NCBI GenBank assembly: GCA_002633005.1
Contig: NMRA01000923.1
Location: forward strand, 1-64,000
Length of the DNA: 64,000 bases
Direction of reading: 5' to 3'
Origin: Phoronis australis
Lineage: Eukaryota > Animalia > Phoronida
Part shown: positions 268-62,487 of the stretch, in pieces
How the letters are laid out: each line of letters begins with the position of its first letter
Numbering within the stretch: the first letter of the stretch is position 1
Made by a program: the position numbers and the translations under genes
The notes under the pieces: model-generated
What the model was told of the DNA's origin: nothing
Databases searched by the model: none
What the model saw: the letters and a program-made list of their open reading frames with translations, nothing else

Positions 268-507
268 ATTCAACAGACACAGTAGCGATGGTTTTCCTTG
301 GGCCCACAGAACACTCATAGATTCCACTATCAGAGGGCTGGGCATTGAAGATGTACAAGTAGCCACCTGCACGTGTCTCAGCGTTAGTGGGAAGGGTCTG
401 CCGATCGCCTCTGGTCCACTTAACTTCACCACTATCTGCGTTACAACGGAGTTGGACACGGCCCCCGACTCTGACAGTCTGGCTCTCAGGGGAGATGGTT
501 ATAGGAC
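268..507 (-). CDS. HSPG2: Exon: Ig ([22 protein letters not shown]…WTRGD…DSGIYEC…)
   Basis: 240 nt, phase 1-1. Confidence 0.9.
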
Positions 508-42600: not shown

Positions 42601-45600
42601 AGAGGATGTGGAGGAGAGAGACATGATTGTGATACTGAGTGAAGTGATATGAACACATACAAAGTGATGGAGGCTGTGCAGGAGAGAGGGACACGTGACA
42701 CTGAGTGAAGTGACATGAGCACATACAGACTGATGGAGGCTGTGGAGGATAGAAGGACATGTGATACTGAGTGAAGTGGTATGATCAATGATGAAGGCTG
42801 TGGTGGAGAGAATGACATGTGACAAGGAACACACACAAGGCAGGCTGATGAGGTCCTCTGTAATAACTGTGAATATTTTTCTTAAATGTTACACACAAAT
42901 GTTATTGTGAACACTAAAGTCAAGAACATTTGGAACACTATTAAGTAGTTAACATCTGCCACGGCATCGCTTCCGATAGTCAGGTTTCAATAAAGACCAA
43001 TTTTGAAAAACATGTTTTTACATAACCCACTCATCACACACCCAACCGAGAAGTCTGTCCAGAAATGATTAGCTAAACACCTTCACCTTGCAAGTAATCT
43101 TGTTTCAAACACATATATCTGATTTTGAGATGCATGGGGCACTGCTTCGGTTAAAGCACACAAAACGAGTACAACACAACACCGAAAGGCATCACATTAC
43201 AAATAACACTACTTACCATATCCACGGAGACAGGAAAATAGATTAAACACGATAAATAAGAAACAAGTTATTTGATAAAAAATCTTTTACAAGACGGTTA
43301 CAAACAGTGCGACGAGAATCTTTAGGAATCCTCAGATTATCTATGACACATGGGAGGCACTTTGCTAAATATAAATACATAGTAGACAAATTTCTAGGAA
43401 ATCAGTCCACTTACGGCAGTTGCTTTCATCTGAACCGTCAGAACACTCCGGCCGTCTATTGCACACGCTCGATTTTTCCAGACACTGACCGTCACCACAT
43501 CTAAACTGGTCAGACCGACACGCTGCAAAACACAGCTAAATATTAACAAGCAAGAATTTGTCCACAATACAACCATACCATATAAGAAAAGCAAGGGTTA
43601 CTCGGTGCATTCCACAAAGCAGTTAAAATGCATGCAATCTGAAAATGAGAAATGAACGGGTTATTTAAAGATTAGAAAGGTGAAACCTAGAAAAAACGAA
43701 ATTAGTTGTGGAACAAAGAATGAGGTGGCGAGGACTAGTTGAGCTGGTACTGGTTTGTCCAGCTTCATATCAACAGAACATGATCACAAGAGTAATCGTG
43801 AACAAGAACAAAATGAAGACAACAAATGAACAACACCAAGCAGCAGGTTGGTTTTCCAACAAAATGCAACATAAAATATAAGGACTATCCATATAAATGC
43901 TAAGAACGATGACGGATACTGGAATTAATAAGCGAACAGAAATGCTTACCTAATAATACTTTTGAAAATGAGTTGACATACACAAGAACTTTTGAATCAG
44001 AAATCTAACAGGGCACAAGCTTTCAAGACTTCCAAACTTCCCCCATTCAGATAGGCCTACAGTACATCAGTGTATATCCCCTATGTGTACACCGCAGTGT
44101 TATTAGCACACATAATAGCCCACAAACAATGAGAAATGAAGCACAGCACACTAGAGGCAAGACAAAGTTTCCATTGAAGCGTCAGGTCCGCTCTCCCATC
44201 AGATCAAGCAGGCGGGTCAGGGTAAACACGACACTTACGACAGTCAAGTTCGTCAGTGTTGTCGGGACAGTCTCGACGACCGTCACAACGCCGGCGATTG
44301 TCTATGCATGGACCGTTCTCACACCTCCACTCATTGGCTGTACACGTCTGTTCACCTTGAAACAACATGCGGTATGTGGAACACCATCATTAGGAAGCAT
44401 CAAAAACACACCACAATGGGAGAAGTTGCTTGGCAACAGCTGATCTCTATCACACAAAGCAGGAGGTTGTTTTCATAGTCACAAAAGACCTGGAGATGTT
44501 GCTAGGCAACAGCTGACCTCTGTCACACAAAGCAGTTTTGTTTTCATACTAGAAGACCTGACATCGAATTTTCACAAACAACCGATTTTAAATATTGAGA
44601 AAAAAATAAGGCAAAATATCACCAGTTTAGATTTTCTGCTTTTTTTTCAGCATGGCAGACAAGCAGGACCGCATTCCTTCTGCTACATAGTTATTGCTGT
44701 ACAATATTTTGAGAAATTGTGGGTACTTGTAGCACCCAAAGCACCACCAAGTAAAGAGTAACAACTTTTGGTGAGAACCCAATTGAGATTTCACTTTACA
44801 TAACACCATCACTTAAGCATACATTATTTCAATGATGTGCACACTGTTGAAGTTGTTAAATGCATTCCTCTGTTACCTATATCACAATAGGAAACAAACA
44901 CACAGTATTTCTAAGTTACATTTAGTTATCACATTGTTTATACTATATTAACATGAGTTCATTGCTGCTCATCTAAGCACAATACACTCGACTAATGAAA
45001 CTGTAAATCTAAGGTCCAATGTGTTAAAGTCACTACAAACTGGCGCAGGGTTACTGTTTGTAGCTGAAGTTACAAATAACATGCAAGTCACAATTTTCTA
45101 CAATGAATATAAGCACTGTAACAACACTCGATTCCAAGGCTTCTGGAACTAAAAGGTCAATCAACATGTTAATGACTATGATGGGGGCGATGCCATCTTT
45201 TGGTTAACCTGAGCATTAGTGGATGAAGCGGGCGGAGGTTGTGCCACTTACTGCAGTCGCGTTCATCACTTCCATCTCGGCAGTCGACACGGCGGTTGCA
45301 GCGACGTTGTATGTCTATACAGCGTCCTGAAGTGACACACCGGAACTCTCTGCTGCTGCAACGCTGTGGCTGTACAGCTACAGAAACAGTGAACATGTCT
45401 CAAAGACGGTGTTAATACACAAACTATATTTCTGTTATCGAACACCACCTGACTCACAAAATACCTCAATACATAACTGACATGTTTCATACAACCCACA
45501 GATATTCACAGGTAATGTTGCAGTCATCAAAATATGCAATATGCAAATTTATACTCGTTCCTTGGTTCACAAACAAAAGACATGACTCAAGAGGACAGAT

Positions 45601-48600
45601 TAACAGTTGCACACTAAGAGGCAGCACTGCCTGCCAACCCCTTAGCACTGTCACTTGACTGAATACATGCATTGATCTCTGTTCCAACAGACAGAGAACA
45701 CATACCACAATTGTACTCATCAGAGCCATCTCGACAGTCGCGACGACGATCACAGCGACGCCTATTGTCAATACACTGACCAGAGCGACAGCGGAACTCA
45801 GCATTGGTGCAACGATTTGATGCTAAAGGAAAAATCAAATTTACATTTCATGGCAGAACCCTGAAAGCAATACCTTAAAACACTTAAAAATAAATCTCAT
45901 TTGAACCATTTGGCAAGACGGTCACAAAATGTGTGGCATAGCTTGACTACATTTGATTCACTCTCCCGGCGTTTAAGTTAGGTCAGCCGTCAACACCACC
46001 TGATTGGTTTGTAAGCTGGAAGTCGTCAGAGGAAACCAATGAAACAAATGTTAAGGGTAGATTCGAGTTGCAATCCGTAGACCCAGATCATTTATAAAGC
46101 GGGAAGAAATCTTCACTTATGAAATTTCTAAACGTTGAGTTCAGTATCCCTTCAACATTTCAGCCAACCTCTTCAGTGGCGGCCATTTTATTAGGGATAT
46201 GCTGGTAAGCTCACAAGCATAATTCCAGAAACACTCGCCTTTTCCACAAAATGGCAGTGATAAAATCTCAGGGACCAAAAGGACCATAGCCTGGACGCTT
46301 TTTTTGTCATAATTAATTTAAGTAAGCTACCTCATCAAAAGCGTGAAAAGTGAAAATAAACATCTTGGTTCATTTGGCAGTTCTTATCTTAATGACGTCA
46401 GCTTAACATGTGTGGGCAGGAAATTGGATGTCCACTGTTAGGAGAGAGATTCCGTACTTGGGACAGTCAATCTCAACGAAACTGCATAATGACTCGTGTG
46501 ATTATGTGTAGTCTCATGTGATCTTCGTCTTAGCAAGATTCTTACGGCTACCGAAATTACGCCGGGAGAATGAACACGAGTTTATCTAATCTAACCTAAT
46601 CTGACACACGAGCCACAGTTCATTTCCAGTAGGCATATAGAACTCTAGTTTGAATGTACATTTAATATATGCAGAGTATAGAATAAACATGTTCCAGCAA
46701 AGCCATCACCAGTGGGGTAATAACAAATTTATTTTTCATCAAAATAGTGCAGGAGCAAGCAGTGTGCCCATGACCTGTCAATCTGCGTGGACCTGTCAAT
46801 CACAATATGACAGTGCTGCTCATAAGTCACAGGATGGCCCCAAAAAGACAAAATCAAAAATTAATTCTAAACATAAATCAATTTATTTTTGGTAGGGCTA
46901 AAAATATGCAATCTTTGGGTGATGTTTCCACAAAGTATTTAAAATCATACGAGTCGAACTGACAGAGTTTGAAACTTTACAAGAAATTTTGCAGGTTTCT
47001 TTTTGGAGTCATTCTGTTGCATATAAAGATGTGATCCCAAGCTGCAGCCAATGTATATCTATCAATCTGAATGGTCCAGCTGTCAAAGCCAGGCTACCAA
47101 CACTTACATATTGTTATCTCGAACAATTCTGCTACAAATTCAGACAAATGAAATGAACACAAGACCAGACAAACACTGGACACAGTAAAACATCAACAAA
47201 CAAAGCAATTACAGCAACTTAGTTAACTCAAAATAAATGAGAAATCACATTAGGATAAGCTTGAGAAATTAAGTGAAGCTATCAGGCTTATAACACAGGC
47301 ACTTGAGTTTATCTGTTCCTCGATCACATCACGATCACATCACGACTGACATCACTCACTTCTAAAAAAACATAAAGGTTGGACACCCACAATCTGCTCA
47401 AAATTTCCAATCAAATATGCATGGAACTCTACAAAACCAGCACTGAACAAATCTTTGAATACTTTTTTCATTTGATCTCTTCCAATTGCCTTCAAGTGGT
47501 GATTTGACGACAGAAAATGTCAAAAAACACCAAAATCACAATTTCAAGGACCTCATTTTGTGACGCAAGACGTTGATGGCAGACGAGCATCCGGGTTGTT
47601 GGCGGACGACTCCCAAAGCAATTCCAGAGCTGTTTTCGCGCACCCACGAATGTTATTTGAGTGCCCTCCACGTAATTTAGTATCAATTTGAATGTAATTA
47701 AACTCTGATTATGCAAACATTGTTTATAACCCTGGAACCACGGGTTGCTGGCTTCTAACGCCTACTGCGAAATCTGCCATTCACCAATGATGATTTACCG
47801 CGACTAAACGTGTGGTCAGACATCGGAAATGTTCGTTGTGCTTCAACAAAGAGTAGCATATAATGTCAAGATCAAACACAAGATATGCTGGTTCTTGCAT
47901 ATAAGTTCTAGGTTAAGGGTTAAAATGAGCTATATGAAACAAATTACACTTAAGTGGAAGGTTAATTTTAATAACCTCAATTATTGAAATTGGGGATAAA
48001 TTTCTTGACTTTGACGAAGGGGTTGCTTGCTCAAACTCGAAATTTTGTCTTCAACAGGCGTGAAAGATAAAGCAGAACTGAAATCCGCCATGTTAACTAT
48101 TTTAGGTCCTTGAATTCAGAGTTGTGAGTTTGTTTTGAAAATTTCGTCGCCAATTCACCACTCACAAGGATAATTTAATGAAATCTAGGAAAAATAAGTC
48201 TACGGAGGTTTATGCAATACCAGTCTGAGAAAGATGCAGGGAGATTTTATTTGGATTTGGGACAGTTGAAGTTGGTAGCCTCGGCTCGGCAAAGTTTTAG
48301 TGTCCAACCTTTATGTTTCTTATAGATGGTTATGAGTCATCGAGAAATTCGAGTGCCTGTGGCTTATAATAGATGTCACAAAACTCTATCATCAGCACCT
48401 AGCTTTAGTACAAAGCATGTTAATATATTATACAAAAACTCATATGATTAGATTGTCCAACTGCCACGACAAAGAAATTCTAAACGTGGGGAAGGGTCGG
48501 TAAAAGGAAACCCACTTATTCAGAGAAGAGACTCAGAGAAAAGGAACCCAACAACAGGAAGTCTCCACTCTTTTGTAAAATTAATTTCCAGACACATCAC

Positions 48601-51600
48601 CACTTCATAAGGAATAATTTCATAATCCTAACTCTTCCATAAGAGTTCCTAGACAGTCCTCTTTTTAAACACACGAAACACTTAACATGAGAAGAGGGGA
48701 CATGCTGTCAAAAACGAGTACTGAACATATTCTGTAATGGAACTATTAAATACAGATGGGATCAAAAACCTGAAGTGAAGATTGTTGTTAGTAAGAAAAA
48801 GGAATTTTCTGAACAGATTTTCTTAGTGAACCCTTTAGAAAAGAGGAAATCAAATTGGAAAAGGCATTTTTGTAAGATATTTTGTCGAAATTGCACCTTT
48901 TTCTGGGGAAAGTAGTCATGATAAAGTCACCCATCAGTGGTAGCTCCCGCACACCTCTTCTGGGAGAAACCTCCAAGTTCAAAATCTACCAAACCGACAA
49001 AAGACATAAACCTTTTTGGGGAGGAAAAGAGGGTAAAACATCAAATAGGCCGTGAATGGACTTTAAGCATTGGTCACGTTAGATCGAGTGTTCTAGCGTT
49101 CTTTAAAATCAGCAGTCACTACATCCAAAGAATGAGCAGCTCTTAAACCAACTGGTTTATCCAGTCTCACTGCACAAGAAATTAATAATCTAAAGCTATG
49201 GGCAAGACATTTTGCTGGGAAGCCTGTGTAAGATCGCAAAGCATGAAATACACCATTAGGAGTTCACACAATTCTGTGAAAGAGCTGTCAAAGGTTAAGG
49301 GCGTGAACTTACTGCAGTCCAGCTCGTCAGACCGATCGCGACAGTGCGGATATCGATCACAACGCTGAGCTCGACTAATACAGGATCCATCTGAACAGCG
49401 GAACTGGTCAGATCTGCAACGTCTTCTCACTGACAAGTAGAAGTAAGTGAACAGTAGAATGATGTTTTACTCCATTAGTTTACTAAGTAACTGATAGGTG
49501 GAGGCATGAGCTGGGCCCGATGTACTACCTCACGCTTATTACCGAGATGAAATGCTCGTCTATAACAGATGACACAGAGAGCAGAGGAAAAAATAAGAGA
49601 GAAAGTGAAGAATAAGTGACAAAAAGATAAATAATAACTAAAACGTAACATAATTTACTATGCTAAAGGGAGAGTTTGGAATAAAACCAGTTAGACAAAA
49701 TAAAAAACTATAGAACAGAACAAAAGGAGAATACATTGGCAGACTTCAGTGACAACTTGATAGAAAAAAAAATAAGTTTCATTGTTAGGTTGATTAAAAC
49801 CAACTCCTATACTTAGTAATTTTATCTGTTCTCAGACCGATGGTGTAATTTTCCATATTATTTTGATTGCAACTTATAAGAAATGTTTGAATCTGAAACC
49901 ATGTTTACACCGATGACTTCAAAATGATTTTACCGTAATTGTTTGGGGTTAATTCGATTTAGGAAGGGTAACAGTCACTTACAGGTATCCCACATTCTGA
50001 GAACCAGTTTTCTCCACTGGATATCGGGCATCAAACTGGTTCTCAAATATGGGACCCCTATAAGTGACTATTGCCAAATGGACCTAATCAAAACCAATCC
50101 TTACTCTGTGAAAAGTGCACAACAGAATCAATTGGACGTAGGTGGGGGAAGCCATATTTTCCGGTATACTTGCACATGTGCAGATCTAAGTTTCTGTGTC
50201 TACCTTTGGCCAAGATCGTTGGAAAACAGTAGCAATCTTTTCCAGCACCTCATCGTCATCATGAGAATATTAACCAAATAAAAACTAAACATGACCTTGA
50301 AAACAATACAACTGCTCGTCATTTATAACAGGAAGCACTTGCCAGCGAGATGAGAAATGAGCATGCAGCACAGTCCCTAAACCAATATTGTTTTTGTAAT
50401 GTAAACAGAGAGATGAAGCAACCTAAGCTGATCAGTACGTCGATTCCTAATTTCATCGGTGTAAACGAGGTATGAGAAAATGCCAAAATTTTGAAACATC
50501 ACAGTGTAAACGAAGTATAAGAAGTGCCAGAATTTTGAAACATCATCGGTGTAAACGGGGTATGAGAAAGTGCCAGAATTTTGAAACATCATCGGTGTAA
50601 ACGAAGTATAAGAAAGTGCCAGAATTTTGAAACATCATCGGTGTAAACGAGGTACGAAAAAAGAATTTTGAAACATCATCAGTGTAAAAGACGTATAAGA
50701 AAGTGCCAGAATTTTGAAACATCATCGGTGTAAACGAGGTACGAGAAAGTGCCAGAATTTTGAAACATCATCGGTGTAAACAAGGTATGAGAAAGTGCCA
50801 GAATTTTGAAACAAGAGGAGGAATTTTAAGTAGTAAACTGTTCCATTTCAAAACCTATAAAGCACATCATACAAAGTAGAGTGGAACAAGAGTCGTCTAT
50901 CTACTGTAGTCATTTTGACAAGATAAAAAAAATCAAATGCTTGAGGTTATCCCTACATGTATTCAAACATGATGCTGTAACATTTCTGAAATGCTCTGAG
51001 CAATGTTTAGAGAACTTGAGCCATGTTTGTAAAGCTCAGAGTCGGGCATGTTTAAAATACAGAGCAATGTTTGAAAACCATATCCTTTTCTCCTTTACAA
51101 CACAAATAACTGAAACAGTATCACATAGTGGTAATTGTACTTAATTCTAGTGTTGTAAATTGATACCAACATGCTCTGCAAGTGAAAATAATGTGCAACT
51201 ACAGCTGTCTGTGTAGTGTTAGGGTATTTTGATTTACAAAGGTATTTTGGAAAAAGTGAACTCTAGTTTTAGAGGGGATAAAATTTAACCAATTGTCTAC
51301 AGCAGTGCAAGTGGTTGAGAACAGGTATGTTTATCTATAAATACTATAATTTAACAAATATGCACAAAAGGAAAGTCTCTTAGTAAAGCCATGTGTACTC
51401 ACTATCATACGTTAAATGACTGGGATGAACTACTATGATGGGAAATAAAATCAAGGCAGTTAAGAACTAGTGCCAATAGTAACAGGCCTAGTAGAAGGAA
51501 TGAAGACAGTGATGAAGTGAATAAGGGCCACTGGTGAGGTCGGGAGACATGCCACTCACTACAGCGTCGCTCATCGGAGCGATCAGAACAGTCAGGATAC

Positions 51601-54600
51601 CCATCACAGACACGACGCCGGTCAATACACTCAGAGGTAGTTTGACAGCGGAAGTAGCGATTGGATGGGAGACAGGGGGATATCCGCTTATGGCTAAAGA
51701 GGAGAGCTACAGAGACAAATCATAAGGTGATGACAATGAGCGGAATGGAGTTTCTTGCAGAAGAAGACGCAAGACATTCAGAAACAGGCAATGCTTAGAA
51801 ATGAGGAAGCCTCGGATTAGAAACATTTTCAGTAGATGTACCACTAAGCTGAGGGAACAACCAACAAAGGAATTCATTATTACCATGGAACTAAATGAAA
51901 AAATGATTAGTAATATGCTAGTTTGACATAAGCAACAGAAAAGACAAAAATGTGTTGTCAATCTCTGCATGAAAATTTTATACCCAACTTAGTGCAATGG
52001 TAAAATGAGTAGCAGCAATGAGTAAACATCAGTTTAATTTGATCTAATAAGTAATTACAGAAGATCGCATAACTTAAAATGAGCGGTCCTTATTGGAGGA
52101 CATATTAGCTGTGTTATCATATATTGTGGTACTGTACACGGCTATAATGAAGAGTTGTGGAAAAGTCAGTTACATCAACAGAGGTGTCCGGCTAGCAGGA
52201 TAACACAGGAAATGATTAGGTATAATGATGCCAATTGTTTTGTTTAGACAAGTTGAAGCACACTGCCACACACACATTCATACTGCATGTAATGCAACAC
52301 TTTGTTTAACAAAAGCAACATCTTCAAATTAGACAAGCCTCTCAAAGCTGAAATTGAAAATAACTCTAACCATGACAAGCACAACAGACACATATTTCAT
52401 AAAGCATCAAATGGAATGCACAGGAAAGATGATGTGCTTCACAACTGTGAAGCCCAAAATTGTGAAGCCCAACCCAATTTAAAACATTAAGTAGTGTGTC
52501 AGTCAAATCATAATCTATGATGTCCATGAAACCTAGTTCCTGAACATCTACTACCTTAAAGCCTTTTCATACTAACTTAACTACGCTACCAGAGGAGTGT
52601 CGTGAACTGTGAAGTTAGTTAAGCTTTCAAACCAGCTTCGGAATTTAGCGGCCACCACAGTTATCACACTGTTCGTATAATCCAAGATATCGAAAGGTTT
52701 CAAATTTAGAAGTATCATATACTGGTTGGATAATAAAAGAAATGATTAACATCAGAATGGTGAATATTTGGAAAAATGATGAAATAACAACATGTGCCGT
52801 TACGACACCTGTTGATAGTTCTTGCGACATCGAACCTAATTATTGATGCTGCAGCAAAAGATCAACACACCACTGGTAAATCCACCCAAGTTGTCCAGTC
52901 GTTATTTTTGATCAAAAGACCGAAGTGAACCGTTCACAACGACCGACACTCCACAAAACACCAACGCGTTGCTTTTGGTGTGAAAGGCTCTCTAGGCTAC
53001 TAAGAAAACAAAGTATGCAGAGGCATGCGTTTCAAGATGAGTCAAAACATAAAGAAGGCTGAAATAACTAATAGCACACTCCTGTTTAAATCAACAAATA
53101 TAAGTAAGCTGCACATAACTAATCAGTTACAATGTCCCAATAGATGCAGCAAAGGACATTGTTAGATCAATGCAGACAGTTGTTATGATCATAGCAATGT
53201 TTACCAGATGTTGCTTCTAGATGAAAACCTTCAGAACCAGCTACAAAAAGCAGGTAACGCTAGACAACACTGACCGCAAACTTAAACAGCTAGTTAGACT
53301 TAGCAAAAAGCATTTTAATGTTAAGAACACTTTTAACTGCATTGCTATATAAGGTTGGAGGTGGATTCGTAATACCGTACTCGTCCAAGTTATGCCCACT
53401 TACTAATTTTCCAAATTATATTTAAATGCAGTTGTTTGGTAACAGGCCAACTATGAACTTATGAATTTGAGACTTAAGATTCCTCAAAGCATAATAGCAT
53501 AATGAATATTCATTTCACCGCCCAAAACGCATGCTTTCACTCACAAGCAGCATTATGTCCAATTTTTACTTAGTTCTTGCATGTAAATTGGGTCACATAA
53601 GTACGACTCACCTGTCGTCGACCCTAATTGGCAGTTTGGGGAAACTGACAACACCAACTTTGCGAAATGTTTTCCTTTTAATGCTCACATTCAGCTTCAA
53701 GTATTCAACGCGAATTTTAAGATTTTTAATTTGAACACACTAGGCAATAACCAAGAAAAGTACGATAATTATTTTACTCATTTTTGTGTAAAAAAACATG
53801 TACAAACAATAGGTTGAACTACCTAAGAATGACTATGAGTGAGAATGGCATATGGGAAGTGTCAAAAAATTTCAAGCTAATTCATGAGAATGTCATCTGG
53901 GAAGTGTCAAAAAATTCAAGCTAATTTAGTATATCTTAACTGGATGTCACCACAGGAAACTATTGGAGGGATTACAGGGATGGCTTAAAGCATATTTAGC
54001 ATCTGTAAAAGTCCTTATTAGTAGACAAATGAAGAACAGAGTCTAAAAATATATGTATAAACATAATTTTACACTTATCGACTTGGTGATCACATAGCCA
54101 TGAATTCCTGGCTAACTTTTTTTCTTAAAATTTGGAAACAGTTGTATTTCAATATTTTCAAAATTTGACTTAGGTTAGACAGTAAGCTTTTGTTTTGTTG
54201 TGAATGATAATTTTGACAATAAAATAATAAATACAAAACGATCCTTATTGCATTTGAGATAAAAGGCACAAAATACAAAAACGATTCACGAACCATAGAC
54301 TTATACATTATTTCTCAACATATTGTAGCCAAGTGTACGAACCTCACACTCTACGTAAAAATAATCGTATGGTTGTAATTATTTTGTCACAGTTAATGCA
54401 GTACATACCACAGTTGACTTCATCGGAGCCATCACTGCACTGAGATGTTCCATCACACTTCTGAGAGGCAGGGATGCAAGACTTGTCACCACAGGTAAAT
54501 TCAGTGTCTGAATCACACTCCTGTGTTCTGCCTGAAGCTGTACGAGGAAAACAAAGATAGGAATTAGAAAAAAGTGCAGGTGTCATAAGTTAAAATGATC

Positions 54601-57600
54601 AAGCAATTAATGCTATGGTGTATTAGTTTCTGATGACTATAAACATGGAATATATCGAGATTGTACATGAAACACTCATGTTATGGAAAATATAAATTCA
54701 ATATTACCCTGTTCATAATACCCCAAACCCACACCCAAGTTAAAACAGGAACAGCTTGTTCGGGTGGAAGTCCTAATGTAAACACAACTTCCTCTGGAAC
54801 AACATGACATTGCAAATCCAAGGGACATCCTGCATTCAAACTTCTCTTTTGCACAGGTACAAAAAAATTCATGAATGACTCTACCAATTGGAAAGTTTAG
54901 AAAGTTAACACACTACTGAGCAGAGTCTAACTGTATACTACAACCCACTAAGCCTTTACTTCTTTCTGTCAGCACTATAGAACACTGCACTGCAATGGTG
55001 AACTAATTTAGATGTAAACTAACGATTTGAATGGCAACAGTCAGATGAGAACGTACACTATGGATGTGCACCATTGTAAGTAAATTCAGAATTGTGCATA
55101 AATACAATACTAACAGTAGCCCAGTGGTACTTTGGGATACTGATTATTGGATAAACGTCTCCTCCATTTGAGTGGGCAGTCTTCCATACTGACATCTTGT
55201 TGCCTTCAAAAAGTCAGAGTACCAACGTCTCTTTTCAAAAATACTAACAACAATAAAGGCAAACATGTATACATAAGTACTTCATTCCCACAAAACCACA
55301 ATAAGAGACAACAGAAGAGAAATGTTTTATTTCACAGTTCAAAATATACAAATGAAAAAATAAAGAATTGAGGATAAGCAAGTACAGTTAAAGAGGCCTG
55401 AAGTGTGAAAACATGTAAATGATACCTTTTAAACAGCTTGTGGTGAACCTATTTCATTGCGATGATAAAGGGAGTTATTCACCTTGCATAATGCAAGAAT
55501 TTCTAGAAAACAATCGTCAACATTCGCTACTTTTGGAACACAGAATGAACTATGCACTTTCATCCCAATAGTTTTCAAATTCCCCGCCTCTAATAATATA
55601 CATAAGTGCATAGCACAAAGAATTTCCACGTAAACATTTCCCAAGTGCATAATCGCCATTGTTTTGTTTACATTAAAGGATACATTTTCCATATAAGTGA
55701 AATGTGCTAAGTCTAAGTCTTGCCAAACCAAATAAGGTGACATACTTTCGTGTTCAGCAAGAAAAATCAACGAAATGATGAGCATCTGACAGTCACTTCT
55801 TTTTTTAAATTTGAAACTAAACAAAAAATGCTTTGACACGCACAGAATTTCAAAATCTTTACAAACAAAATGCAAAAATATCTGGTGAACAGTTCGACTT
55901 GTGTTTCAGTGGCAAAGAACCACTTTGAATAATGCAATTTAGTCCATTTTCTGTGTTATGTCACTTTTAAGACAAAGACACAATCTAAGACAAATGTAAC
56001 AGCACTACCACAGCAATATTTGCAAGTTAAAATATAAATATGTTAACAGCGTATAAAAGCAGATATATTAACACTGCACAAAAAAATCAAGACACGTTAA
56101 CACTGTAGTAGAAAATGAAGATATAATAACATATAGAAGCAAAGAACTGACAAGGCAGTACAAACAATAACAGAAATTTCAGCTGGTACATTGTCACACA
56201 AGAGACTACATAGGAAACAAGAACAAGGAATACACCACAATAGAATTACTGCAACTATAACCTGTTCTTTCAGCTTGTATTTGATATTCTCTGTTTGCAG
56301 TGTCAAAATTGAATTGGAACTTGAATTCAACCTTATCTTCGTTGATGAACGTGCACCTCTTTAACTCTGGAGACTCTGAAAATGAATACCAAAATATCAA
56401 TAAATGGAAGAAGCACATAGGTGGATCCATTAACAAAAGATAACATCAAGGTAGACATGGGAAAGGCATCAACAAACGCCAAAAGAAAACGGACAAACTT
56501 CTGTCTCCCCATTATGATGATCAAGTCTGCCAAAAGATTTTTTTGGCTTATAAAACCTGAAAATGATGCCATGACTCATCATTCAGACTGTATCATCATC
56601 TCACGATGTTCTGAGACCGCTACAATAGCCCATTATAATAGTGCATAACGTTGACCCAATTCCAGTGTCCATGTGGATTACACTAGGTGGCACCTTGGCA
56701 ACTTTGGAAGCTGTGGAATGGCGAAGGTAAAAAAATGCAAAAAATTAAGCCAACTTTTATTAGGGCTGTTCCAGTAAAATCTGTATGGGAGGGGGGAAGG
56801 CACCTTTTTTTCACACCCACCACCCATATTTTTCATTTATTTCTTCAGCCTACCACCCGTAACTTTTTATAAGTTTGAAATGCAACCACCCGTAATTTTT
56901 TTTTGTTCTTGTGGTTGACTGCACAGGCGCTTGAATTTATCTGTTCCTCCATCACCACTAACGTCATTCATTACTAAGAAAACATTCGTTTCTTATATAT
57001 GGTTATTAACCATCGAGAAATTCGAGCACCTGTGGTTAAATGGTGTTATGGGCATGCGGATGAGGAGATCGGAGGGAATGAAAATGTCGGAGCTTTTTGC
57101 AAGTTGCATTTTTGTTTCAGTTTTTGATTCTGTGCGGATTGTTTATACAATTTACTAAAATTACCCACCATCAAACATTTATGGCCCAATGAAACAACAA
57201 AGACCTGTAAATTTTTATTTTTTTGAAGTACGACCACCAGCCATTTTGAATTTAAATCAAACGCAACCACCCATAAATTTTTATTTCAGTTGCCTTCCCC
57301 CCCAAACAGATTTTGCTGGAACAGCCCTTAGTTAAATTGCTTTTTTCGATGGCAAGTGGCTTTAACTCTGAGTTTAAAAGAGCTGCGAGGAATTCCGCTT
57401 GCGTTCGTCCAATTTTAGGCTATAGCACCATACATAAAATTCAGCCGCAAAATTATAATAGGCCATTTGCAAAATGAATAACAGCAATGAATCATGTTTG
57501 CTAGAAGGTAACGAAAATGTCCCTTCAACAATTTAACAAGGTTGTCGGCTTATTAAAAAAAGTGCAGCCACAGTAAAATCTTAATATTCATTCTGTAATT

Positions 57601-60600
57601 GTGACAGGAACATGACGCTCTCAGCTTGGCATGCGTGTAGCACAAGTCTTAGTTCACAATTTGTTGCATCTTTGTAACTTATCACAATTTTTTACACTCG
57701 AGGAAAAGTGAATTGCCTTCCCACTTCCTTAACTTCCGGAAAATTCTCCGACATTCTGTCCTGATGGTATTCAACTTGCACTCAGCTGTCATGACAAAAT
57801 CCTGCTAGCAACCAGCCATCATGACAGGGCCCAGCAAGTATTTCTCTCTGCATACTTTTAGAATTTTCCTGCCTTTAGTGAATGTGCAGCAAATTAAAAT
57901 CAAAACATGAACCAAATGGAATTTTCCCATGACTTGGGATATATTTTGTCTTGATATTGAAAGACGACATCTGCGCTGCTAATGAGNTTCAGTTTTTGAT
58001 TCTGTGCGGATTGTTTATACAATTTATTAAAATTACCCACCATCAAACATTTATGGCCCAATGAAACAACGACCTGTAAATTGTTATTTTTTTGAAGTAC
58101 GACCACCAGCCATTTTGAATTTAAATCAAACGCAACCACCCATAAATTTTTATTTCAGTTGCCTTCCCCCCAAACAGATTTTGCTGGAACAGCCCTTAGT
58201 TAAATTGCTTTTTTCGATGGCAAGTGGCTTTAACTCTGAGTTTAAAATAGCTGCGAGGAATTCCGCTTGCGTTCGTCCAATTTTAGGCTATAGCACCATA
58301 CATAAAATTCAGCCGCAAAATTATAATAGGCCATTTGCAAAATGAATAACAAGCAATGAATCATTGTTTGCTAGAAGGTAACGAAAATGTCCCTTCAACA
58401 ATTTAACAAGGTTGTCGGCTTATTAAATAAAGTGCAGCCACAGTAAAATCTTAATATTCATTCTGTAATTGTGACAGGAACATGACGCTCTCAGCTTGGC
58501 ATGCGTGTAGCACAAGTCTTAGTTCACAATTTGTTGCATCTTTGTAACTTATCACAATTTTTTACACTCGAGGAAAAGTGAATTGCCTTCCCACTTCCTT
58601 AACTTCCGGAAAATTCTCCGACATTCTGTCCTGATGGTATTCAACTTGCACTCAGCTGTCATGACAAAATCCTGCTAGCAACCAGCCATCATGACAGGGC
58701 CCAGCAAGTATTTCTCTCTGCATACTTTTAGAATATTCCTGCCTTTAGTGAATGTGCAGCAAATTAAAATCAAAACATGAACCAAATGGAATTTTCCCAT
58801 GACTTGGGATATATTTTGTCTTGATATTGAAAGACGACATCTGCGCTGCTAATGAGGAGAAAATTGCCCCACACTAATAAGAAAGACTATGACGCCAATT
58901 TCATAGGGCAGAATAAATGAGATCTGGCAAATTTAGTTACTGTACCTTCAAGTTTATCAACCACATCCACCCGTGGACACTCCTGGTCACAGGCTGTGCC
59001 ACTCTTCGCAAGTTCACCAGTGCCCAGCAGGAGGCATTCAACACAGGGTTTTAACTCTCCACATTTATTACCACAGGTCTGTAATAGCAATCAACAGCAA
59101 CACATTCAGACAGACATTATACATTAGGCTAATAGACAGAGAACACAACAGTGAAATAGCATGGAAAGAGTAAAACAATGCAACTTTGACTGGAACTCAT
59201 AACTATGCTCCATGGAACAAGAGAATGTCAGCTCTGACAACATAACTCACTGGACAGTCTTCACAAAATCGCCCTCTGTAAGGCTCTTCACAGACACAAG
59301 CTCCACAGTTACAGGTTCCATGACCACTACACAAATCCTGCAATGCAAAACAAACCTATGGCAGCACTTATGAACACAAACATAATGTAAATATTAGTAA
59401 AAACTCAAAAGTTTCTCTTTCTGCATCGTTTAAAGGCTTCATAAATTGCTGCAAACTCAAACAATTTGCCAAATGTTAACAGTTGTACAGCACAAAAACT
59501 ACATAAAAGTACAAACAAAAATAAAAATTTCCAATGATATACACCAACTCCAACAAAGCACATTTTTGTGCAAGTCAGGAAATAAAATGAAAAGAATCAA
59601 TCCAGCTATGTAAGTTTACATGTGTCACCCATTGTAGCATTACTATATAGTTAGAAGTTGGCTATACATACCCCTGCGCCAGTAGAAGCACGACATTTGT
59701 CTGTTGACAATGAACAGTCGCATGAAGGGCCAGTGTAGAGTACATTACATACACATTGGCCACATACGCATCTACCTTCACCATTACAAATAGCCTGCAG
59801 GAAAAGATTAGAAAAGTTACGAATTAGTTGAATGGGTAGTAGCTCAGCAGGAAACCCACACACACCTACCCTAGAATAACTCACAGCAGTGCAACTTGCC
59901 GCACTTTTAAGTAGAGCGTCCACACATACATAAGCGCTACTCCGCGCATGCAGAACTTTATAAAAATACGATGGCATGAAAAAGAAAGGACAACTGCGCA
60001 AGCAAGCATATCTTACTTCACCTTTTCACCAGTTTTCCGGCCATGTAGTGATTAGAAATCGTGCCAGTTACCCTTTAACTGCTTATCCTACACCGAAAAG
60101 GTGCACTAGCTAAAATAGCGTCCAGACAGTCCCCAAAACTATTGACAACTCGTTCCAGAAGTAACTAAGGTAAGTCTGAGTGTGGATGGTGTTAGACATA
60201 ATTTGTTGTTGAAATGTCGCGCGTTTGGAACTACGGTAACCATGTGCATGCAAATGCGAATGATTGTTCTGTTACTGCTAGAGAATAAAAAAATCTGATG
60301 AATGACAACTGTAATCATGAGGTTCGACATATTTGTGTTTAGACCAGAACAGTGTATAAAGCACTATGTAACTTGAGGGACTTAAATGGCGATTTGTTAG
60401 TATTAACCAGAGACAAAAGCACACAGAACCCTTCTACTAATGTAGCAGTTATCCACGGGAAACAAAAAGTGATTTTTTTGCTCACTTGACATTTTTCATG
60501 GTTATGTTGACGGTCTGCAACTCATGTTCCTAATCTTAAAATCAATCAAAAATAAGTATGACCATGTGACCATGGACTTGACATTACATATAGAAATCAT

Positions 60601-60693
60601 TGAGAAAATTTGAAAAACATTATTCAAAGGTAAAACCCATTCTTACCCCATTTGCAGAAGGACATTTACCATCCGGAGGGCAAATGGGTTCAA
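268..60693 (-). CDS. HSPG2: Perlecan (basement-membrane heparan sulfate proteoglycan core protein), partial multi-exon gene span; open at both ends
   Basis: Domain order LDLa-Ig-L4/LE x3-Ig(n). Perlecan-diagnostic motifs: [54 protein letters not shown]. Exon phases join in frame. Inclusion of exons above 56 kb is an inference. Confidence 0.93.
529..590. repeat. (GT/GCGT)n microsatellite
   Basis: Seen directly. Confidence 0.85.
1221..1400 (-). CDS. HSPG2: Exon: Ig second part (GNPPPILSW…[12 protein letters not shown]…)
   Basis: 180 nt, phase 1-1; partner first-half exon not visible. Confidence 0.9.
1715..1854. repeat. 35-bp tandem repeat x4
   Basis: ccggtctcacgcacccagtctataactagccatat. Confidence 0.92.
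4009..4299 (-). CDS. HSPG2: Exon: Ig (…[18 protein letters not shown]…[11 protein letters not shown]…)
   Basis: 291 nt, phase 1-1. Confidence 0.9.
4611..4949. repeat. Higher-order tandem repeat (90+35 bp = 125-bp unit)
   Basis: acatggtcagaaaagtgaacaaattgatt at 4611, 4701, 4736, 4826, 4861. Confidence 0.9.
4998..5140 (-). CDS. HSPG2: Exon: Ig second half (…[12 protein letters not shown]…)
   Basis: phase 2-1. Confidence 0.9.
5856..5988 (-). CDS. HSPG2: Exon: Ig first half (…[10 protein letters not shown]…[19 protein letters not shown])
   Basis: phase 1-2. Confidence 0.9.
6025..6110. repeat. 43-bp tandem duplication
   Basis: catgttacagta(t/c)acaccacgtgtaatacaacaacattgaggta twice. Confidence 0.85.
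6870..6987 (-). CDS. HSPG2: Exon: Ig second half (LQGNILRI…[11 protein letters not shown]…)
   Basis: phase 0-1. Confidence 0.9.
7505..7656 (-). CDS. HSPG2: Exon: Ig first half (…[16 protein letters not shown]…)
   Basis: phase 1-0. Confidence 0.9.
8494..8637 (-). CDS. HSPG2: Exon: Ig second half ([24 protein letters not shown]…)
   Basis: 144 nt. Confidence 0.9.
9278..9409 (-). CDS. HSPG2: Exon: Ig first half ([22 protein letters not shown]…[11 protein letters not shown])
   Basis: 132 nt. Confidence 0.9.
9470..10110. repeat. Two diverged direct copies (~9470-9720, ~9870-10110) of a dispersed repeat; inverted third copy at ~34085-34170
   Basis: Shared gtgtttacttacacagtccaactgggac and ataggggg…aacaattatcttc…aggaccataa. 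Confidence 0.7.
10388..10498 (-). CDS. HSPG2: Exon: second LDLa inside domain IV ([35 protein letters not shown])
   Basis: 111 nt, phase 1-1. Confidence 0.88.
11847..11996. repeat. 47-bp tandem repeat x3
   Basis: aataaaaataggaaatatggtgtgtaagacaggaaatgtagctggtg. Confidence 0.92.
12264..12383 (-). CDS. HSPG2: Exon: LDLa inside domain IV ([35 protein letters not shown])
   Basis: 120 nt, phase 1-1. Confidence 0.88.
12800..13087 (-). CDS. HSPG2: Exon: Ig (…[15 protein letters not shown]…SDYTCTARN…)
   Basis: 288 nt, phase 1-1. Confidence 0.92.
13658..13835 (-). CDS. HSPG2: Exon: Ig second half ([12 protein letters not shown]…[11 protein letters not shown]…)
   Basis: Resembles human YTLVWT…DAGTYVCTGSN. 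Confidence 0.92.
15606..15700 (-). CDS. HSPG2: Exon: Ig first half ([32 protein letters not shown]); a second donor would extend it to 15591
   Basis: phase 1-0; two in-phase donors. Confidence 0.85.
16950..17225 (-). CDS. HSPG2: Exon: domain IV Ig (…YTCQVEG…VTWIRADG…DSGKFVC…)
   Basis: 276 nt, phase 1-1. Confidence 0.9.
17675..17762 (-). CDS. HSPG2: Exon: last LE of domain III ([29 protein letters not shown])
   Basis: phase 0-1. Confidence 0.9.
18178..18291 (-). CDS. HSPG2: Exon: LE ([14 protein letters not shown]…[17 protein letters not shown])
   Basis: 114 nt. Confidence 0.9.
19659..19892 (-). CDS. HSPG2: Exon: L4 III-3 end/LE (…[22 protein letters not shown]…[16 protein letters not shown])
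   Basis: 234 nt, phase 0-0. Confidence 0.93.
20052..20135 (-). CDS. HSPG2: Exon: L4 III-3 ([28 protein letters not shown])
   Basis: 84 nt. Confidence 0.88.
20481..20573 (-). CDS. HSPG2: Exon: L4 III-3 ([31 protein letters not shown])
   Basis: 93 nt. Confidence 0.9.
20899..21090 (-). CDS. HSPG2: Exon: L4 III-3 ([11 protein letters not shown]…[12 protein letters not shown])
   Basis: 192 nt. Confidence 0.9.
21468..21608 (-). CDS. HSPG2: Exon: LE ([41 protein letters not shown])
   Basis: 141 nt. Confidence 0.92.
21828..21913 (-). CDS. HSPG2: Exon: LE ([28 protein letters not shown])
   Basis: phase 1-0. Confidence 0.92.
22431..22576 (-). CDS. HSPG2: Exon: LE ([30 protein letters not shown]…)
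   Basis: phase 2-1. Confidence 0.92.
22975..23096 (-). CDS. HSPG2: Exon: LE ([34 protein letters not shown])
   Basis: phase 0-2. Confidence 0.93.
23495..23608 (-). CDS. HSPG2: Exon: LE ([38 protein letters not shown])
   Basis: Perlecan GLYLGTCE motif. Confidence 0.94.
23812..24609. other. Probable assembly artefact: ~398-bp near-identical duplication around a single N (24211)
   Basis: Copies differ only by a SNP and a C-run length. Confidence 0.8.
24631..24690. repeat. (GT)n/(GTGTGC)n microsatellite next to a splice donor
   Basis: Seen directly. Confidence 0.95.
24698..24809 (-). CDS. HSPG2: Exon: L4/LE ([10 protein letters not shown]…[16 protein letters not shown])
   Basis: 112 nt, phase 2-0. 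Confidence 0.93.
25251..25369 (-). CDS. HSPG2: Exon: L4 III-2 ([32 protein letters not shown])
   Basis: Conserved perlecan REHxLMALA; phase 0-2. Confidence 0.93.
26327..26410 (-). CDS. HSPG2: Exon: L4 III-2 ([28 protein letters not shown])
   Basis: 84 nt. Confidence 0.9.
26882..26974 (-). CDS. HSPG2: Exon: L4 III-2 ([31 protein letters not shown])
   Basis: 93 nt. Confidence 0.92.
27982..28164 (-). CDS. HSPG2: Exon: L4 III-2 (…[13 protein letters not shown])
   Basis: 183 nt. Confidence 0.92.
29287..29427 (-). CDS. HSPG2: Exon: LE ([18 protein letters not shown]…[13 protein letters not shown])
   Basis: CFCMGV motif; 141 nt. Confidence 0.92.
29641..29854 (-). CDS. HSPG2: Exon: laminin EGF (FSREC…[13 protein letters not shown]…GRCICK)
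   Basis: LE consensus, phase 2-0. Confidence 0.93.
30206..30333 (-). CDS. HSPG2: Exon: laminin EGF ([36 protein letters not shown])
   Basis: LE consensus, phase 0-2. Confidence 0.93.
30712..30831 (-). CDS. HSPG2: Exon: laminin EGF (NCAPGYQR…[17 protein letters not shown])
   Basis: LE consensus. Confidence 0.92.
31511..31622 (-). CDS. HSPG2: Exon: L4/LE (LSEVSM…[16 protein letters not shown])
   Basis: 112 nt, phase 2-0. Confidence 0.92.
32446..32582 (-). CDS. HSPG2: Exon: L4 III-1 (…[22 protein letters not shown]…)
   Basis: 137 nt, phase 0-2. Confidence 0.92.
33476..33559 (-). CDS. HSPG2: Exon: L4 III-1 ([28 protein letters not shown])
   Basis: 84 nt, phase 0-0. Confidence 0.9.
33718..33810 (-). 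CDS. HSPG2: Exon: L4 III-1 ([31 protein letters not shown])
   Basis: SYGG motif; 93 nt. Confidence 0.92.
34557..34745 (-). CDS. HSPG2: Exon: L4 module III-1 (…[13 protein letters not shown])
   Basis: YWSLP motif; 189 nt. Confidence 0.9.
35369..35493 (-). CDS. HSPG2: Exon: domain III start, LE ([31 protein letters not shown])
   Basis: CFCFG motif; phase 1-0. Confidence 0.92.
36068..37680. mobile_element. Non-autonomous Helentron/HINE (DINE-1-like) element with internal ~305-bp tandem array
   Basis: subTIR acttggcggaatt (36092-36104) inverted to aattccgccaagt (37665-37677); extra inverted copy acttggcg (37653); hairpin cgctc-ggaa-gagcg (36076-36089); A-rich flanks; repeat units start ~36169, ~36479, ~36784, then N gap. 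Confidence 0.7.
37839..37903 (-). repeat. tRNA-derived fragment (SINE-head-like), not an intact tRNA
   Basis: Minus strand …ggtcgtgggttcaagtcccattggggca with B-box GGTTCAAGTCC; D and anticodon arms not coherent. Confidence 0.4.
38175..38462 (-). CDS. HSPG2: Exon: domain II terminal Ig (ITWRLNWGH...[11 protein letters not shown])
   Basis: Perlecan-diagnostic WRLNWGH; 288 nt. Confidence 0.95.
38845..38976 (-). CDS. HSPG2: Exon: LDLa 11 ([36 protein letters not shown])
   Basis: 132 nt, phase 1-1. Confidence 0.93.
39331..39450 (-). CDS. HSPG2: Exon: LDLa 10 ([35 protein letters not shown])
   Basis: Perlecan-typical CEPNEF repeat. Confidence 0.93.
40144..40272 (-). CDS. HSPG2: Exon: LDLa 9 ([35 protein letters not shown])
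   Basis: 129 nt, phase 1-1; resembles a conserved perlecan LDLa repeat. Confidence 0.92.
40380..40680. mobile_element. Degenerate foldback/MITE-like long inverted repeat
   Basis: ctctcataaaatcagtctcaaaatattc vs gaatattttgagaccgattctatgagag; pairing extends outward and inward. Confidence 0.55.
40917..41067 (-). CDS. HSPG2: Exon: Ig within domain II, second half (ALPAG...[10 protein letters not shown]...LSVDPLTR)
   Basis: DxGxYxC motif; phase 0-1. Confidence 0.88.
41582..41697 (-). CDS. HSPG2: Exon: Ig within domain II, first half ([38 protein letters not shown])
   Basis: Ig B-strand Cys and C-strand Trp; phase 1-0. Confidence 0.9.
42035..42154 (-). CDS. HSPG2: Exon: LDLa 8 ([39 protein letters not shown])
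   Basis: 120 nt, phase 1-1; acceptor abuts a minisatellite. Confidence 0.87.
42150..42825. repeat. Minisatellite, ~11 units of ~50-72 bp (consensus ~66)
   Basis: ggaggctgtggtggagagagggacatgtgatactgagtgaagtgatatga… repeated. Confidence 0.9.
43415..43522 (-). CDS. HSPG2: Exon: LDLa 7 ([35 protein letters not shown])
   Basis: 108 nt, phase 1-1. Confidence 0.9.
44239..44355 (-). CDS. HSPG2: Exon: LDLa 6 ([35 protein letters not shown])
   Basis: 117 nt, phase 1-1. Confidence 0.9.
45252..45377 (-). CDS. HSPG2: Exon: LDLa 5 ([36 protein letters not shown])
   Basis: 126 nt, phase 1-1. Confidence 0.9.
45706..45822 (-). CDS. HSPG2: Exon: LDLa 4 ([35 protein letters not shown])
   Basis: 117 nt, phase 1-1. 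Confidence 0.9.
47294..48361. mobile_element. Non-autonomous TIR DNA transposon, 8-bp TSD (P-superfamily-like CANRG termini; hAT possible)
   Basis: TIRs cacaggcacttgagttt / aaattcgagtgcctgtg; exact TSD gcttataa at 47286-47293 and 48362-48369; no transposase ORF. Confidence 0.8.
49313..49429 (-). CDS. HSPG2: Exon: LDLa 3 ([35 protein letters not shown])
   Basis: 117 nt, phase 1-1. Confidence 0.9.
50454..50812. repeat. Minisatellite, ~44-bp unit, ~8 copies
   Basis: catcggtgtaaacgaggtatgagaaagtgccagaattttgaaacat repeated. Confidence 0.92.
51560..51706 (-). CDS. HSPG2: Exon: LDLa 2 (..[40 protein letters not shown])
   Basis: LDLa consensus; only the distal tag acceptor keeps phase 1; gtgagt donor. 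Confidence 0.85.
54409..54537 (-). CDS. HSPG2: Exon: LDLa 1 ([36 protein letters not shown])
   Basis: LDLa consensus, phase 1-1, 129 nt. Confidence 0.88.
56262..56375 (-). CDS. Exon: integrin beta-tail domain, second half ([38 protein letters not shown])
   Basis: ttttcag acceptor, gttata donor; 114 nt, phase 1-1; resembles beta3 CTYKNEDDCVVRFQY. Confidence 0.8.
56763..57327. mobile_element. PIF/Harbinger (Tourist-like) MITE
   Basis: ~40-bp TIRs gggctgttccagtaaaatctg… / …cagattttgctggaacagccc; TTA on both flanks. Confidence 0.8.
56922..57034. mobile_element. 113-bp mini copy of the 47294 TIR family nested inside the Harbinger MITE
   Basis: Same termini (cacaggcgcttgaatttatc…gagaaattcgagcacctgtg); degenerate 8-bp TSD gttgactg/gttaaatg. 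Confidence 0.7.
57116..58856. other. Probable assembly artefact: ~870-bp near-identical duplication around a single N (57987)
   Basis: A few SNPs and indels; the second copy holds only the right half of the MITE. Confidence 0.8.
58946..59078 (-). CDS. Exon: integrin beta-tail domain, first half ([44 protein letters not shown])
   Basis: CPTC..C....CVEC pattern of integrin beta tail; 133 nt, phase 0-1. Confidence 0.9.
59251..59337 (-). CDS. Exon: integrin-beta I-EGF4-like ([29 protein letters not shown])
   Basis: cag/gtgagt; 87 nt, phase 0-0. Confidence 0.9.
59672..59794 (-). CDS. Exon: integrin-beta I-EGF ([41 protein letters not shown])
   Basis: CxGxGxCxCGxCxC integrin-beta motif; cag/gtatgt; 123 nt, phase 0-0. 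Confidence 0.9.
60647..60693 (-). CDS. Exon: start of integrin-type EGF ([16 protein letters not shown]), phase 1-0
   Basis: tgttgtag acceptor, gtaaga donor, 47 nt; joins next exon in frame. Confidence 0.75.
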
Positions 60694-62405
60694 CTACAAC
60701 ACAGAATGTAACAAAAATTAAAACATGGACAAATGATATACATGGTTATATTGGATAACAAACATTACCACTAACTACATGGCAACCCTCATGATGGTTG
60801 CCATGGAGAATCCAATCACCAACAACAGAGGTTTCACTTTCAAAACCCATGATGACAGTTGTACACCTACTCACAGCTTATACAGACATGGAATGTATAA
60901 AGAATATACAGTAGAGTATCCACAAATTGGGACAAAAATAAAATACCAACATCGTCATTGTCTATTTTTAAAAAAAAATACTTCATTGCTAAAAATGCTC
61001 AATAGATGATGATAGTTATATAATTCAAAGTGTGAAAATAATGAAGAAACGTTTCCTTCCAGTTTTCTAGTTGAAAATATTCATTAAGTAAAACATGACT
61101 GTTCCACCATATTCTGTTCTAACTGAAAGAAACATTACTGTAGTTCATGGACTAGTAGTGTGTGTCTCAAAATGTTCACCTGTAAATTTCAACTACAAAA
61201 AACAACTGACTTACCTTTGACCAATTAAGTATATTTTCAGGTGATGTTTTACCTTTGGCGTTTTTTAAATAGACTGAAAACAGTGTTGTCTGTCTGATAA
61301 CATAATTAAAAATAATAGTTTTCATTTCACCACTTGTTGAACTCCTAGGTAACTCTCTGATTTTCATAAACTAAAATGCAGTCTTGTGCTGACCACAGAC
61401 ACAGGTTAAGTCAAAAGCTGACTGATGTATTAGGTGAGGTAATATATAGCGTCTGTCCAAAAAACGACCTGGCGAAATTCCCAAGTCGCCCACTGGGAAA
61501 TGAGCTCATCAAAGGGAAAACCCATGTGCGGCAGTGCAGTGGTCCTGGCCTTCACAAACGACAGTACGAAAGATGACCGATTTGCAGCCTGTTCCACAGA
61601 CCAAAGAATCTCGAGAGGAAGCCAATGTGATCACATGCTCAGCTTGCTATTAATAGCAATATCTCGCAAAATCTTGCATTTTTGCGAGGACAAGTCTTCG
61701 CTTCCACGGAATGAACATCTGTTCAGCTAAGAAAGCAGCTAATCATAAAACATTCACTTCCTGAATTGAATTCCGTAACCACAAGAAATCCGCAAGCAAA
61801 ACCAGTATGATTGCCTTGCAGGTTTGTTTGTAATGCATGGTGATATCTCGCGACGACATGCATGATCTTGTGATTTTGCTAGTTTGTCTACAGAACAGGC
61901 CAAACAACTCCAGCTTCTGTCAATTTCATAACGTAAAATTGTCGCCAGGACTTGACAGGGACCTCAGGGGTCTTACACTCCACTGATTTATCCACATTAT
62001 TTTGAAATCGCTTTGCCCAGTCAAACATTGAGTGTCATAAAAGAGATAAGCATACCAGTAGAACTACTCTCTTTTATCACATTTGTGTAGACTCACAGTT
62101 TAACTGTGGATTTCTGTAGACACCAGACCGTCCTGAGTTGCATCATATACCAACTCCGGACGGTTTCGATTAAGCGTTATGTACTTCCTGTTATACTTTA
62201 AGAGCAGGTTAGGATGTGAGCTGAGGGTGGCATATGTACTGATTTCAAGAAGTTAATCTAACATTTGTAAACCAAAGGTGTTTTATTTGAAGAAAACGAT
62301 ATGACAGCTGAATTTTCTTTGTCCGACTTCTTCTGACTTTGGTTGCAAAAATCCGGTGACTTGTACAGGTTGCCAAAACAACCCCTGCAGAGGTTAACCA
62401 GGTCG

Positions 62406-62487
62406 ATAGTTCAGACTTCTGCGCTTATTACTGACTGCTATGCTTCAATAGTTCAGACTTCTGCGCTTATTACTGACTGCTATGCTT
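62406..62487. repeat. ~42-bp tandem duplication
   Basis: atagttcagacttctgcgcttattactgactgctatgctt twice. Confidence 0.85.

Follow-up and report, generated by a model that had tools for sequence, protein, structure and literature searches.

An integrin-beta lower-leg module ahead of the perlecan LDLa array in Phoronis australis and its probable fusion to perlecan

Does a perlecan gene of the phoronid Phoronis australis encode part of an integrin? The question is raised by a 64,000-nt stretch of DNA (contig NMRA01000923.1, positions 1 to 64,000; hereafter the window), in which five minus-strand exons resembling the lower leg of an integrin beta subunit lie directly ahead of the first LDLa exon of a perlecan gene. 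A preliminary description of this DNA had proposed that perlecan acquired these exons by exon shuffling. We consider it likely, with a probability of roughly 0.7, that the module exons are spliced into the perlecan mRNA, which would give a secreted perlecan carrying an integrin lower leg, an estimate that rests on the sequence of the locus. The six exons at the centre of the question are as follows:

60647..60693, minus strand: module exon 1, phase 1-0; the first two Cys of I-EGF3, without the last Cys of I-EGF2
59672..59794, minus strand: module exon 2, phase 0-0; the remaining part of I-EGF3 and the start of I-EGF4
59251..59337, minus strand: module exon 3, phase 0-0; the remaining part of I-EGF4
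58946..59078, minus strand: module exon 4, phase 0-1; the first half of the integrin beta-tail, profile columns 205-248
56262..56375, minus strand: module exon 5, phase 1-1; the second half of the beta-tail, ending one profile column before the ancestral intron that precedes the transmembrane (TM) exon
54409..54537, minus strand: first perlecan LDLa exon, phase 1-1; Pfam Ldl_recept_a, E 1.3e-10

The preliminary description had placed all six exons correctly, each with AG and GT ends, and its claim of in-frame splicing held, the six together giving 633 nt and 210 amino acids with 0 stops. We also recovered the phases that it reported, with phase 1 at either end of the module and a first LDLa exon in phase 1-1 after it (1-0, 0-0, 0-0, 0-1, 1-1 and 1-1 over the six exons). 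The module itself comprises 167 codons without a stop or frameshift, and every one of its splice sites is intact. Exon 1, at 47 nt, is too short to be recognised by a profile alone; its Cys pattern precedes none of 296 donor-like intronic sites, its donor outscores 35 of 48 perlecan sites and its acceptor outscores 12 of 48.

Scanning metagenome contigs with a pattern for the integrin cytoplasmic motif, taken in part from the preliminary description, yielded 115 loci, nearly all of which were integrin beta when translated. A profile of 350 columns, running from before I-EGF1 through the cytoplasmic tail (the head is not covered), was built from 22 loci with at least 170 open upstream residues. 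Module exons 1-5 aligned collinearly to columns 123-290 of this profile with 130.5 bits, bearing out the identification of the block as two I-EGF repeats and a beta-tail. When 3471 six-frame pieces of the window were searched blindly, exons 2-5 were the top four matches (E 7e-9 to 4.6e-5) and the fifth match had an E of 0.66; exon 5, with E 4.6e-5 among these pieces, is therefore the second half of the beta-tail. Matching the exons to Pfam one by one supported the same assignment in part, with EGF_2 on exon 2, I-EGF_1 at the cut-off on exon 3, Integrin_B_tail on exon 4 (E 1.3e-6) and Ldl_recept_a on 54409-54537, but exon 5 alone gave no beta-tail match. The score of exon 4 fell below the Pfam cut-off (29.2 vs. 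33.6 bits) because this exon is half the domain. Against the PDB, the top match of exon 2 was integrin beta-1, residues 567-604 (E 1.2e-8). Exon 3 alone retrieved reelin slightly ahead of beta-3, so single exons are not decisive, and PDB searches with exon 4 alone and with exon 5 alone returned nothing. The first repeat scored 31.1 bits on the I-EGF3 profile vs. 28.1 on that of I-EGF4, values that fit either I-EGF3 or a duplicate of I-EGF4, and the second repeat scored 47.9 bits on the I-EGF4 profile. Identity of the module to the 22 integrin-beta legs was 32-43%; in a tree it formed a long branch (3.08), and the tree resolves neither its placement nor its donor.

The module agrees with integrin beta subunits in the collinear order of its domains, in its cysteine frame and in the position and phase of four introns. 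Unlike an integrin beta, the module has no I-EGF1/2 in the window, no TM or cytoplasmic exon and no 663-687 cysteine pair, and its first intron lies elsewhere. The absence of a TM or cytoplasmic exon between the beta-tail and the LDLa exon had been noted at the outset; in the whole window, the profile found none and the DNA pattern for the cytoplasmic motif had 0 matches at 3 mismatches. The profile likewise found no I-EGF1/2 exon in the window, and thus none within the 3.3 kb upstream of the module, up to position 64000. Two possible traces of a TM segment were rejected. Read-through of exon 5, taken as a decayed TM segment, was equalled by 60 of 500 random intronic extensions, and hydrophobic frames in the T-rich 1.7-kb intron between exon 5 and the LDLa exon, taken as a TM exon, did not reach the profile.

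All 22 integrins of the profile carry Cys at columns 266 and 291; the module has neither. Column 266 is a Val in exon 5 and, given the donor at 56262, nothing occupies column 291, whose Cys is encoded on the absent membrane exon. The module contains 24 Cys in total and keeps all the other invariant profile Cys, at columns 124-258; the last Cys of I-EGF2 is absent together with its repeat. The beta-tail disulfides of beta3 are given in the accessible part of PMC13146540 as 608-655, 614-635, 617-631 and 663-687, the last being strained and allosteric, and 663-687 is also named in an excerpt of PMC6738422. Since the order and spacing of columns 210-291 match the beta3 numbering, we infer that the two missing Cys are the partners of one bond, 663-687. 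With the preferred donor, the module keeps three of the four beta-tail pairs of integrin beta. Once the membrane exon was gone, loss of the remaining partner Cys would be the expected result of selection on a folded, secreted domain. The argument from paired loss becomes weaker if a second donor is used, since this would add a Cys:

56250..56261, minus strand: possible extension of exon 5, 12 nt to a second phase-1 donor, adding four residues of which one is Cys

The donors at 56250 and 56262 scored 5.7 vs. 4.0 with a matrix made from all donors and 3.5 vs. 6.4 with a non-LDLa matrix. Because 56250 is also a phase-1 donor, the frame of a fusion would be kept with either.

The pattern of Cys retention also bears on whether the block is still a functional sequence. 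It might be left over from an integrin-beta duplication, decaying and not expressed, at a site upstream of perlecan or within one of its introns, and the long branch, the lack of any relative found for the block and an AT shift at third codon positions are points in favour of that reading. The third-position G+C of the module is indeed low, with a z of -3.56 vs. -0.97 to +1.07 for 11 perlecan blocks (the same blocks set the expectation); AT-richer codons are equally compatible with a foreign origin, a low level of inclusion, relaxed selection or a separate gene. A remnant is nonetheless hard to reconcile with the open frame and intact splice sites, or with the retention of every invariant Cys of columns 124-258 at ~40% identity when the sole two losses amount to one bond, a state that neutral decay would not leave. 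We consider this explanation very unlikely.

Intron positions provided a second line of evidence on the origin of the module. Splice junctions were mapped automatically in 35 of the 115 integrin loci, namely those that contain introns and extend at least 900 nt upstream. They represent 14 gene groups, 12 of them with a mapped junction; a few of the calls are clearly erroneous, and in many cases the locus does not reach across all the sites. Of the five introns in the module, four fall at intron sites of integrin-beta genes: column 172 in phase 0 (6/12 groups), column 205 in phase 0 (7/12), column 251 in phase 1 (5/12) and column 289 in phase 1 (5/12, at column 290 there). The 3' limit of the block is the phase-1 intron that precedes the membrane exon. 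In the five groups that have this last intron, the membrane exon begins just before the last beta-tail Cys, and other loci have an intron at column 299 instead. None of the 12 integrin gene groups has an intron at the site of the first module intron (column 130, phase 0); three have one at column 134 in phase 1. The mapping also placed no integrin junction at the position of the exon 1 start, few loci being mapped that far upstream. Of the symmetrical phase-1 shuffle that had been proposed, the 3' half stands, that edge being an ancestral phase-1 intron. The 5' edge does not correspond to an ancestral integrin intron, so a clean 1-1 shuffle is not what is seen, and this edge was probably remodelled.

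Taken together, the shared intron positions and the paired Cys loss suggest that the block is genomic integrin DNA that has adapted to the absence of its anchor; they uphold the derivation from an integrin-beta gene, with loss of the anchor, which we regard as well supported. Under this model, a copy of a stretch of genomic integrin-beta DNA would have landed in the perlecan gene or immediately ahead of it. Its 3' break would have fallen within the phase-1 intron that precedes the membrane exon, a phase compatible with the phase-1 LDLa exons, and would have left the last beta-tail Cys behind, after which its partner may have changed to Val. The 5' break may have occurred in or near the I-EGF2/3 exon and been remodelled later.

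The gene that follows the module on the minus strand has the following parts:

42035..51706, minus strand: seven further one-domain LDLa exons, phase 1-1
38175..41697, minus strand: Ig, three LDLa and Ig, the rest of perlecan domain II, from the exon-chain model
17675..35493, minus strand: domain III, made up of three laminin-B (L4) units plus laminin EGF repeats, from Pfam and the exon-chain model
268..17225, minus strand: first part of domain IV, an Ig array that includes two LDLa exons and continues past the window end

An approximate exon-chain model of the locus contained 60 exons (4 of the module and 56 of perlecan) and 8197 coding nt and was open to the end of the window. Domain II (LDLa then Ig), domain III (L4 with laminin EGF) and domain IV (the Ig array) were all found, identifying the gene as perlecan; domain V (laminin G and EGF) would lie beyond the window. 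The nearest perlecans were identified by the domain II Ig exon at 38176-38460, which is 68% identical to the perlecan-like protein Tubulanus XP_074655735.1, 62% to Branchiostoma belcheri KAI8488443.1 and 53% to Elysia RUS87348.1. Perlecan/HSPG2 relatives share an order of LDLa array, Ig, three LDLa, Ig, laminin-B/LE units and Ig array. What sets the Phoronis australis locus apart is an integrin lower leg preceding the LDLa array, a run of eight LDLa ahead of the first Ig, and a further two LDLa within the Ig array; the latter are phase 1-1 exons at 12422-12264 and 10498-10388, both on the minus strand.

We then considered whether the proximity of module and perlecan could be a product of the assembly, as a contig join lies within the module:

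57116..58856, strand not applicable: a single N at 57987 with a copy of an 870-nt sequence on either side, the copies agreeing at 862 of 867 positions, inside the beta-tail intron

This duplication is most likely a contig-overlap artefact. Since the N at 57987 falls between the two halves of the beta-tail, it has no bearing on the step from exon 5 to the LDLa exon. An inverted repeat at 56751-57339 (arms of 43 nt, 81% complementary, 503 nt apart), which is MITE-like, lies partly in the duplicated overlap. A misassembly that set part of an ordinary integrin-beta gene beside perlecan could draw on both the join (a single N and 870-nt overlap) inside the module and the repeat within the overlap. 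It would have had to unite two halves of one beta-tail domain with matching phases, however, and exon 5 and the LDLa exons lie on one gap-free stretch, with no N from exon 5 to 37005. An ordinary integrin would also have the column-266 Cys found in 22 of 22 and an upstream I-EGF2, which is lacking within 3.3 kb, a distance exceeded by only 1 of 59 modelled introns. Misassembly therefore seems to us highly improbable. The window has a second single-N junction of the same assembly pattern at 23812-24609 (N at 24211), with a 399-nt near-identical overlap (397/398). Elsewhere in its introns are tandem repeats of 46-nt units at 50453-50840 and a low-complexity array at ~42160-42880 that gives long spurious open frames.

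A join of exon 5 to the LDLa exon would span a 1.7-kb intron. All LDLa exons are phase 1-1 and hence compatible with the phase-1 end of the module, and the locus leaves no space for the remainder of an integrin. The exon 5 donor is weak, with only 3 of 48 perlecan donors scoring lower, and donors of its CAG/GTT type occur at 3 of 48 well-supported perlecan exons. If exon 5 is instead read through in full, 18 residues follow before a stop. A crude count of acceptors was set aside, as an AG before the Cys was also present in 19 of 34 unspliced sequences.

The weak donor and open read-through could also mean that the module exons form the 3' part of an independent gene for a secreted, integrin-beta-derived protein, similar to ITGBL1 but with a beta-tail. 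Such a gene would stop after the 18 read-through residues and be polyadenylated near 55331, where an AATAAA is located, and perlecan would have a start of its own, either at 55785 or in exons past 64 kb whose splicing bypasses the block. The codon use of the module, which differs from that of perlecan, would suit this arrangement, as would one further feature of the intron:

55746..55785, minus strand: signal-peptide-like candidate first exon with an ATG, a hydrophobic stretch and a strong phase-1 donor; the main formal rival start of perlecan

A loose rule also gave more signal-like first exons in this intron than expected, 3 vs. 0.33. A strict rule gave 1, vs. 1 in 49.6 kb of other introns, and 39 of 300 local shuffles yielded as many or more. 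The single AATAAA of the 1.7-kb intron occurs at the background rate (0.62 per kb). Other points speak against a separate gene: the in-phase donor of exon 5 nearly coincides with the ancestral intron, read-through would end in a tail with an unpaired Cys, and a promoter would need to be squeezed into <500 nt unless the gene were nested on the same strand. We judge a separate gene unlikely and favour splicing of the module into perlecan. In the region 60694-64000, the search for an upstream perlecan start (signal peptide or SEA) gave a best tblastn E of 0.19 and 2 exon candidates vs. 4.0 expected. One candidate SEA exon (63718-63671, minus strand; 48 nt, phase 1-1) faintly resembles the N-terminal region of Branchiostoma KAI8488443.1, accounting for that E of 0.19; it lacks a continuation and is at background rate, and we kept it as a weak lead only. 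With a fusion, the start of the gene would lie outside the window, which makes the N-terminal placement first proposed for the module tentative.

An integrin leg without head, membrane anchor and tail does not bind ligand or signal as an integrin. As read here, with no ligand-binding head, anchor or cytoplasmic tail, the module would be unable to signal. If fused, it would more probably form a stiff, disulfide-bonded spacer or a protein-binding arm between the start of perlecan and domain II. Because it begins and ends in phase 1, the module is possibly an optional block of perlecan. The beta-tail is, to our knowledge, particular to integrin beta chains; here it stands apart from the receptor, probably inside a core basement-membrane protein. 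In alphaIIbbeta3, the beta-tail touches the calf-2 domain of the alpha subunit, according to a section of PMC13146540. By analogy, and less likely than a spacer, the module might act as a decoy that is tethered to the matrix and, by docking on integrin alpha legs, adjusts adhesion from the extracellular side, having shed the strained 663-687 bond, which contributes to the gating of integrin activation, and being switched on or off as a phase-1 cassette; we regard this role as doubtful. If it were true, a basement-membrane proteoglycan would have taken the lower leg of its own receptor class. The gene keeps a record of the event in its donor intron positions, its phase-compatible break and the loss of the orphaned Cys, and it provides a natural test of whether I-EGF3/4 and the beta-tail fold, and bind, without an alpha leg and without the 663-687 bond.

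Other proteins also carry additions at the place of the module. Branchiostoma belcheri KAI8488443.1 has 8 thyroglobulin type-1 repeats there, and Tubulanus XP_074655735.1 has ~180 residues (about 63-243) without a Pfam match just before its LDLa array. The stretch preceding both inserts is presumably a SEA domain, for which there was no Pfam call. Together with the module, these inserts suggest that the stretch before domain II is an uptake site for new modules in invertebrate perlecans. Perlecan domain I (SEA) is described as absent in some invertebrates in the available portion of PMC4398486. Although the source of KAI8488443.1 calls it Nidogen-2, this protein is the N-terminal portion of a perlecan in which the 8 thyroglobulin type-1 repeats are interspersed with LDLa repeats. 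A secreted protein of integrin-type EGF repeats is known in ITGBL1/TIED, which has 10 such repeats and was reported, in the accessible text of PMC8978763, to be associated with beta1 integrins and to lower their activity. ITGBL1 is a stand-alone protein of ten repeats, whereas the module in the window consists of two repeats and a beta-tail and is likely part of perlecan.

We were also curious whether the same architecture occurs elsewhere. No integrin families were listed for 11 perlecan matches, only 2 of which reach upstream of the LDLa array. Single-exon homologue searches among proteins of at most 2000 aa, a range that leaves out full-length perlecans, gave three candidates for exon 4, none of which scored, and none for exon 2. 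Two exon-4 matches among 1.84 billion proteins were rejected as repeat artefacts. A scan for related loci with the two I-EGF exons produced 582 pattern matches and 0 confirmed, and the ESM Atlas contained no usable match to exon 4, recognition being low. Among the titles listed by full-text literature searches there was no paper on a perlecan with I-EGF repeats and a beta-tail, or on a perlecan-integrin-beta fusion; the word integrin was not found in the accessible text of the perlecan-evolution paper PMC4398486, and the available parts of the perlecan reviews PMC6266596, PMC10381214 and PMC3308698 describe no integrin-beta domain. Since the protein searches covered sequences of up to 2000 aa, gene models in databases may already include this architecture without its having attracted comment. 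P0009 and P0019-P0021 are perlecan Ig/LDLa fragments, or cluster members, that their source labels 'dystroglycan 1'.
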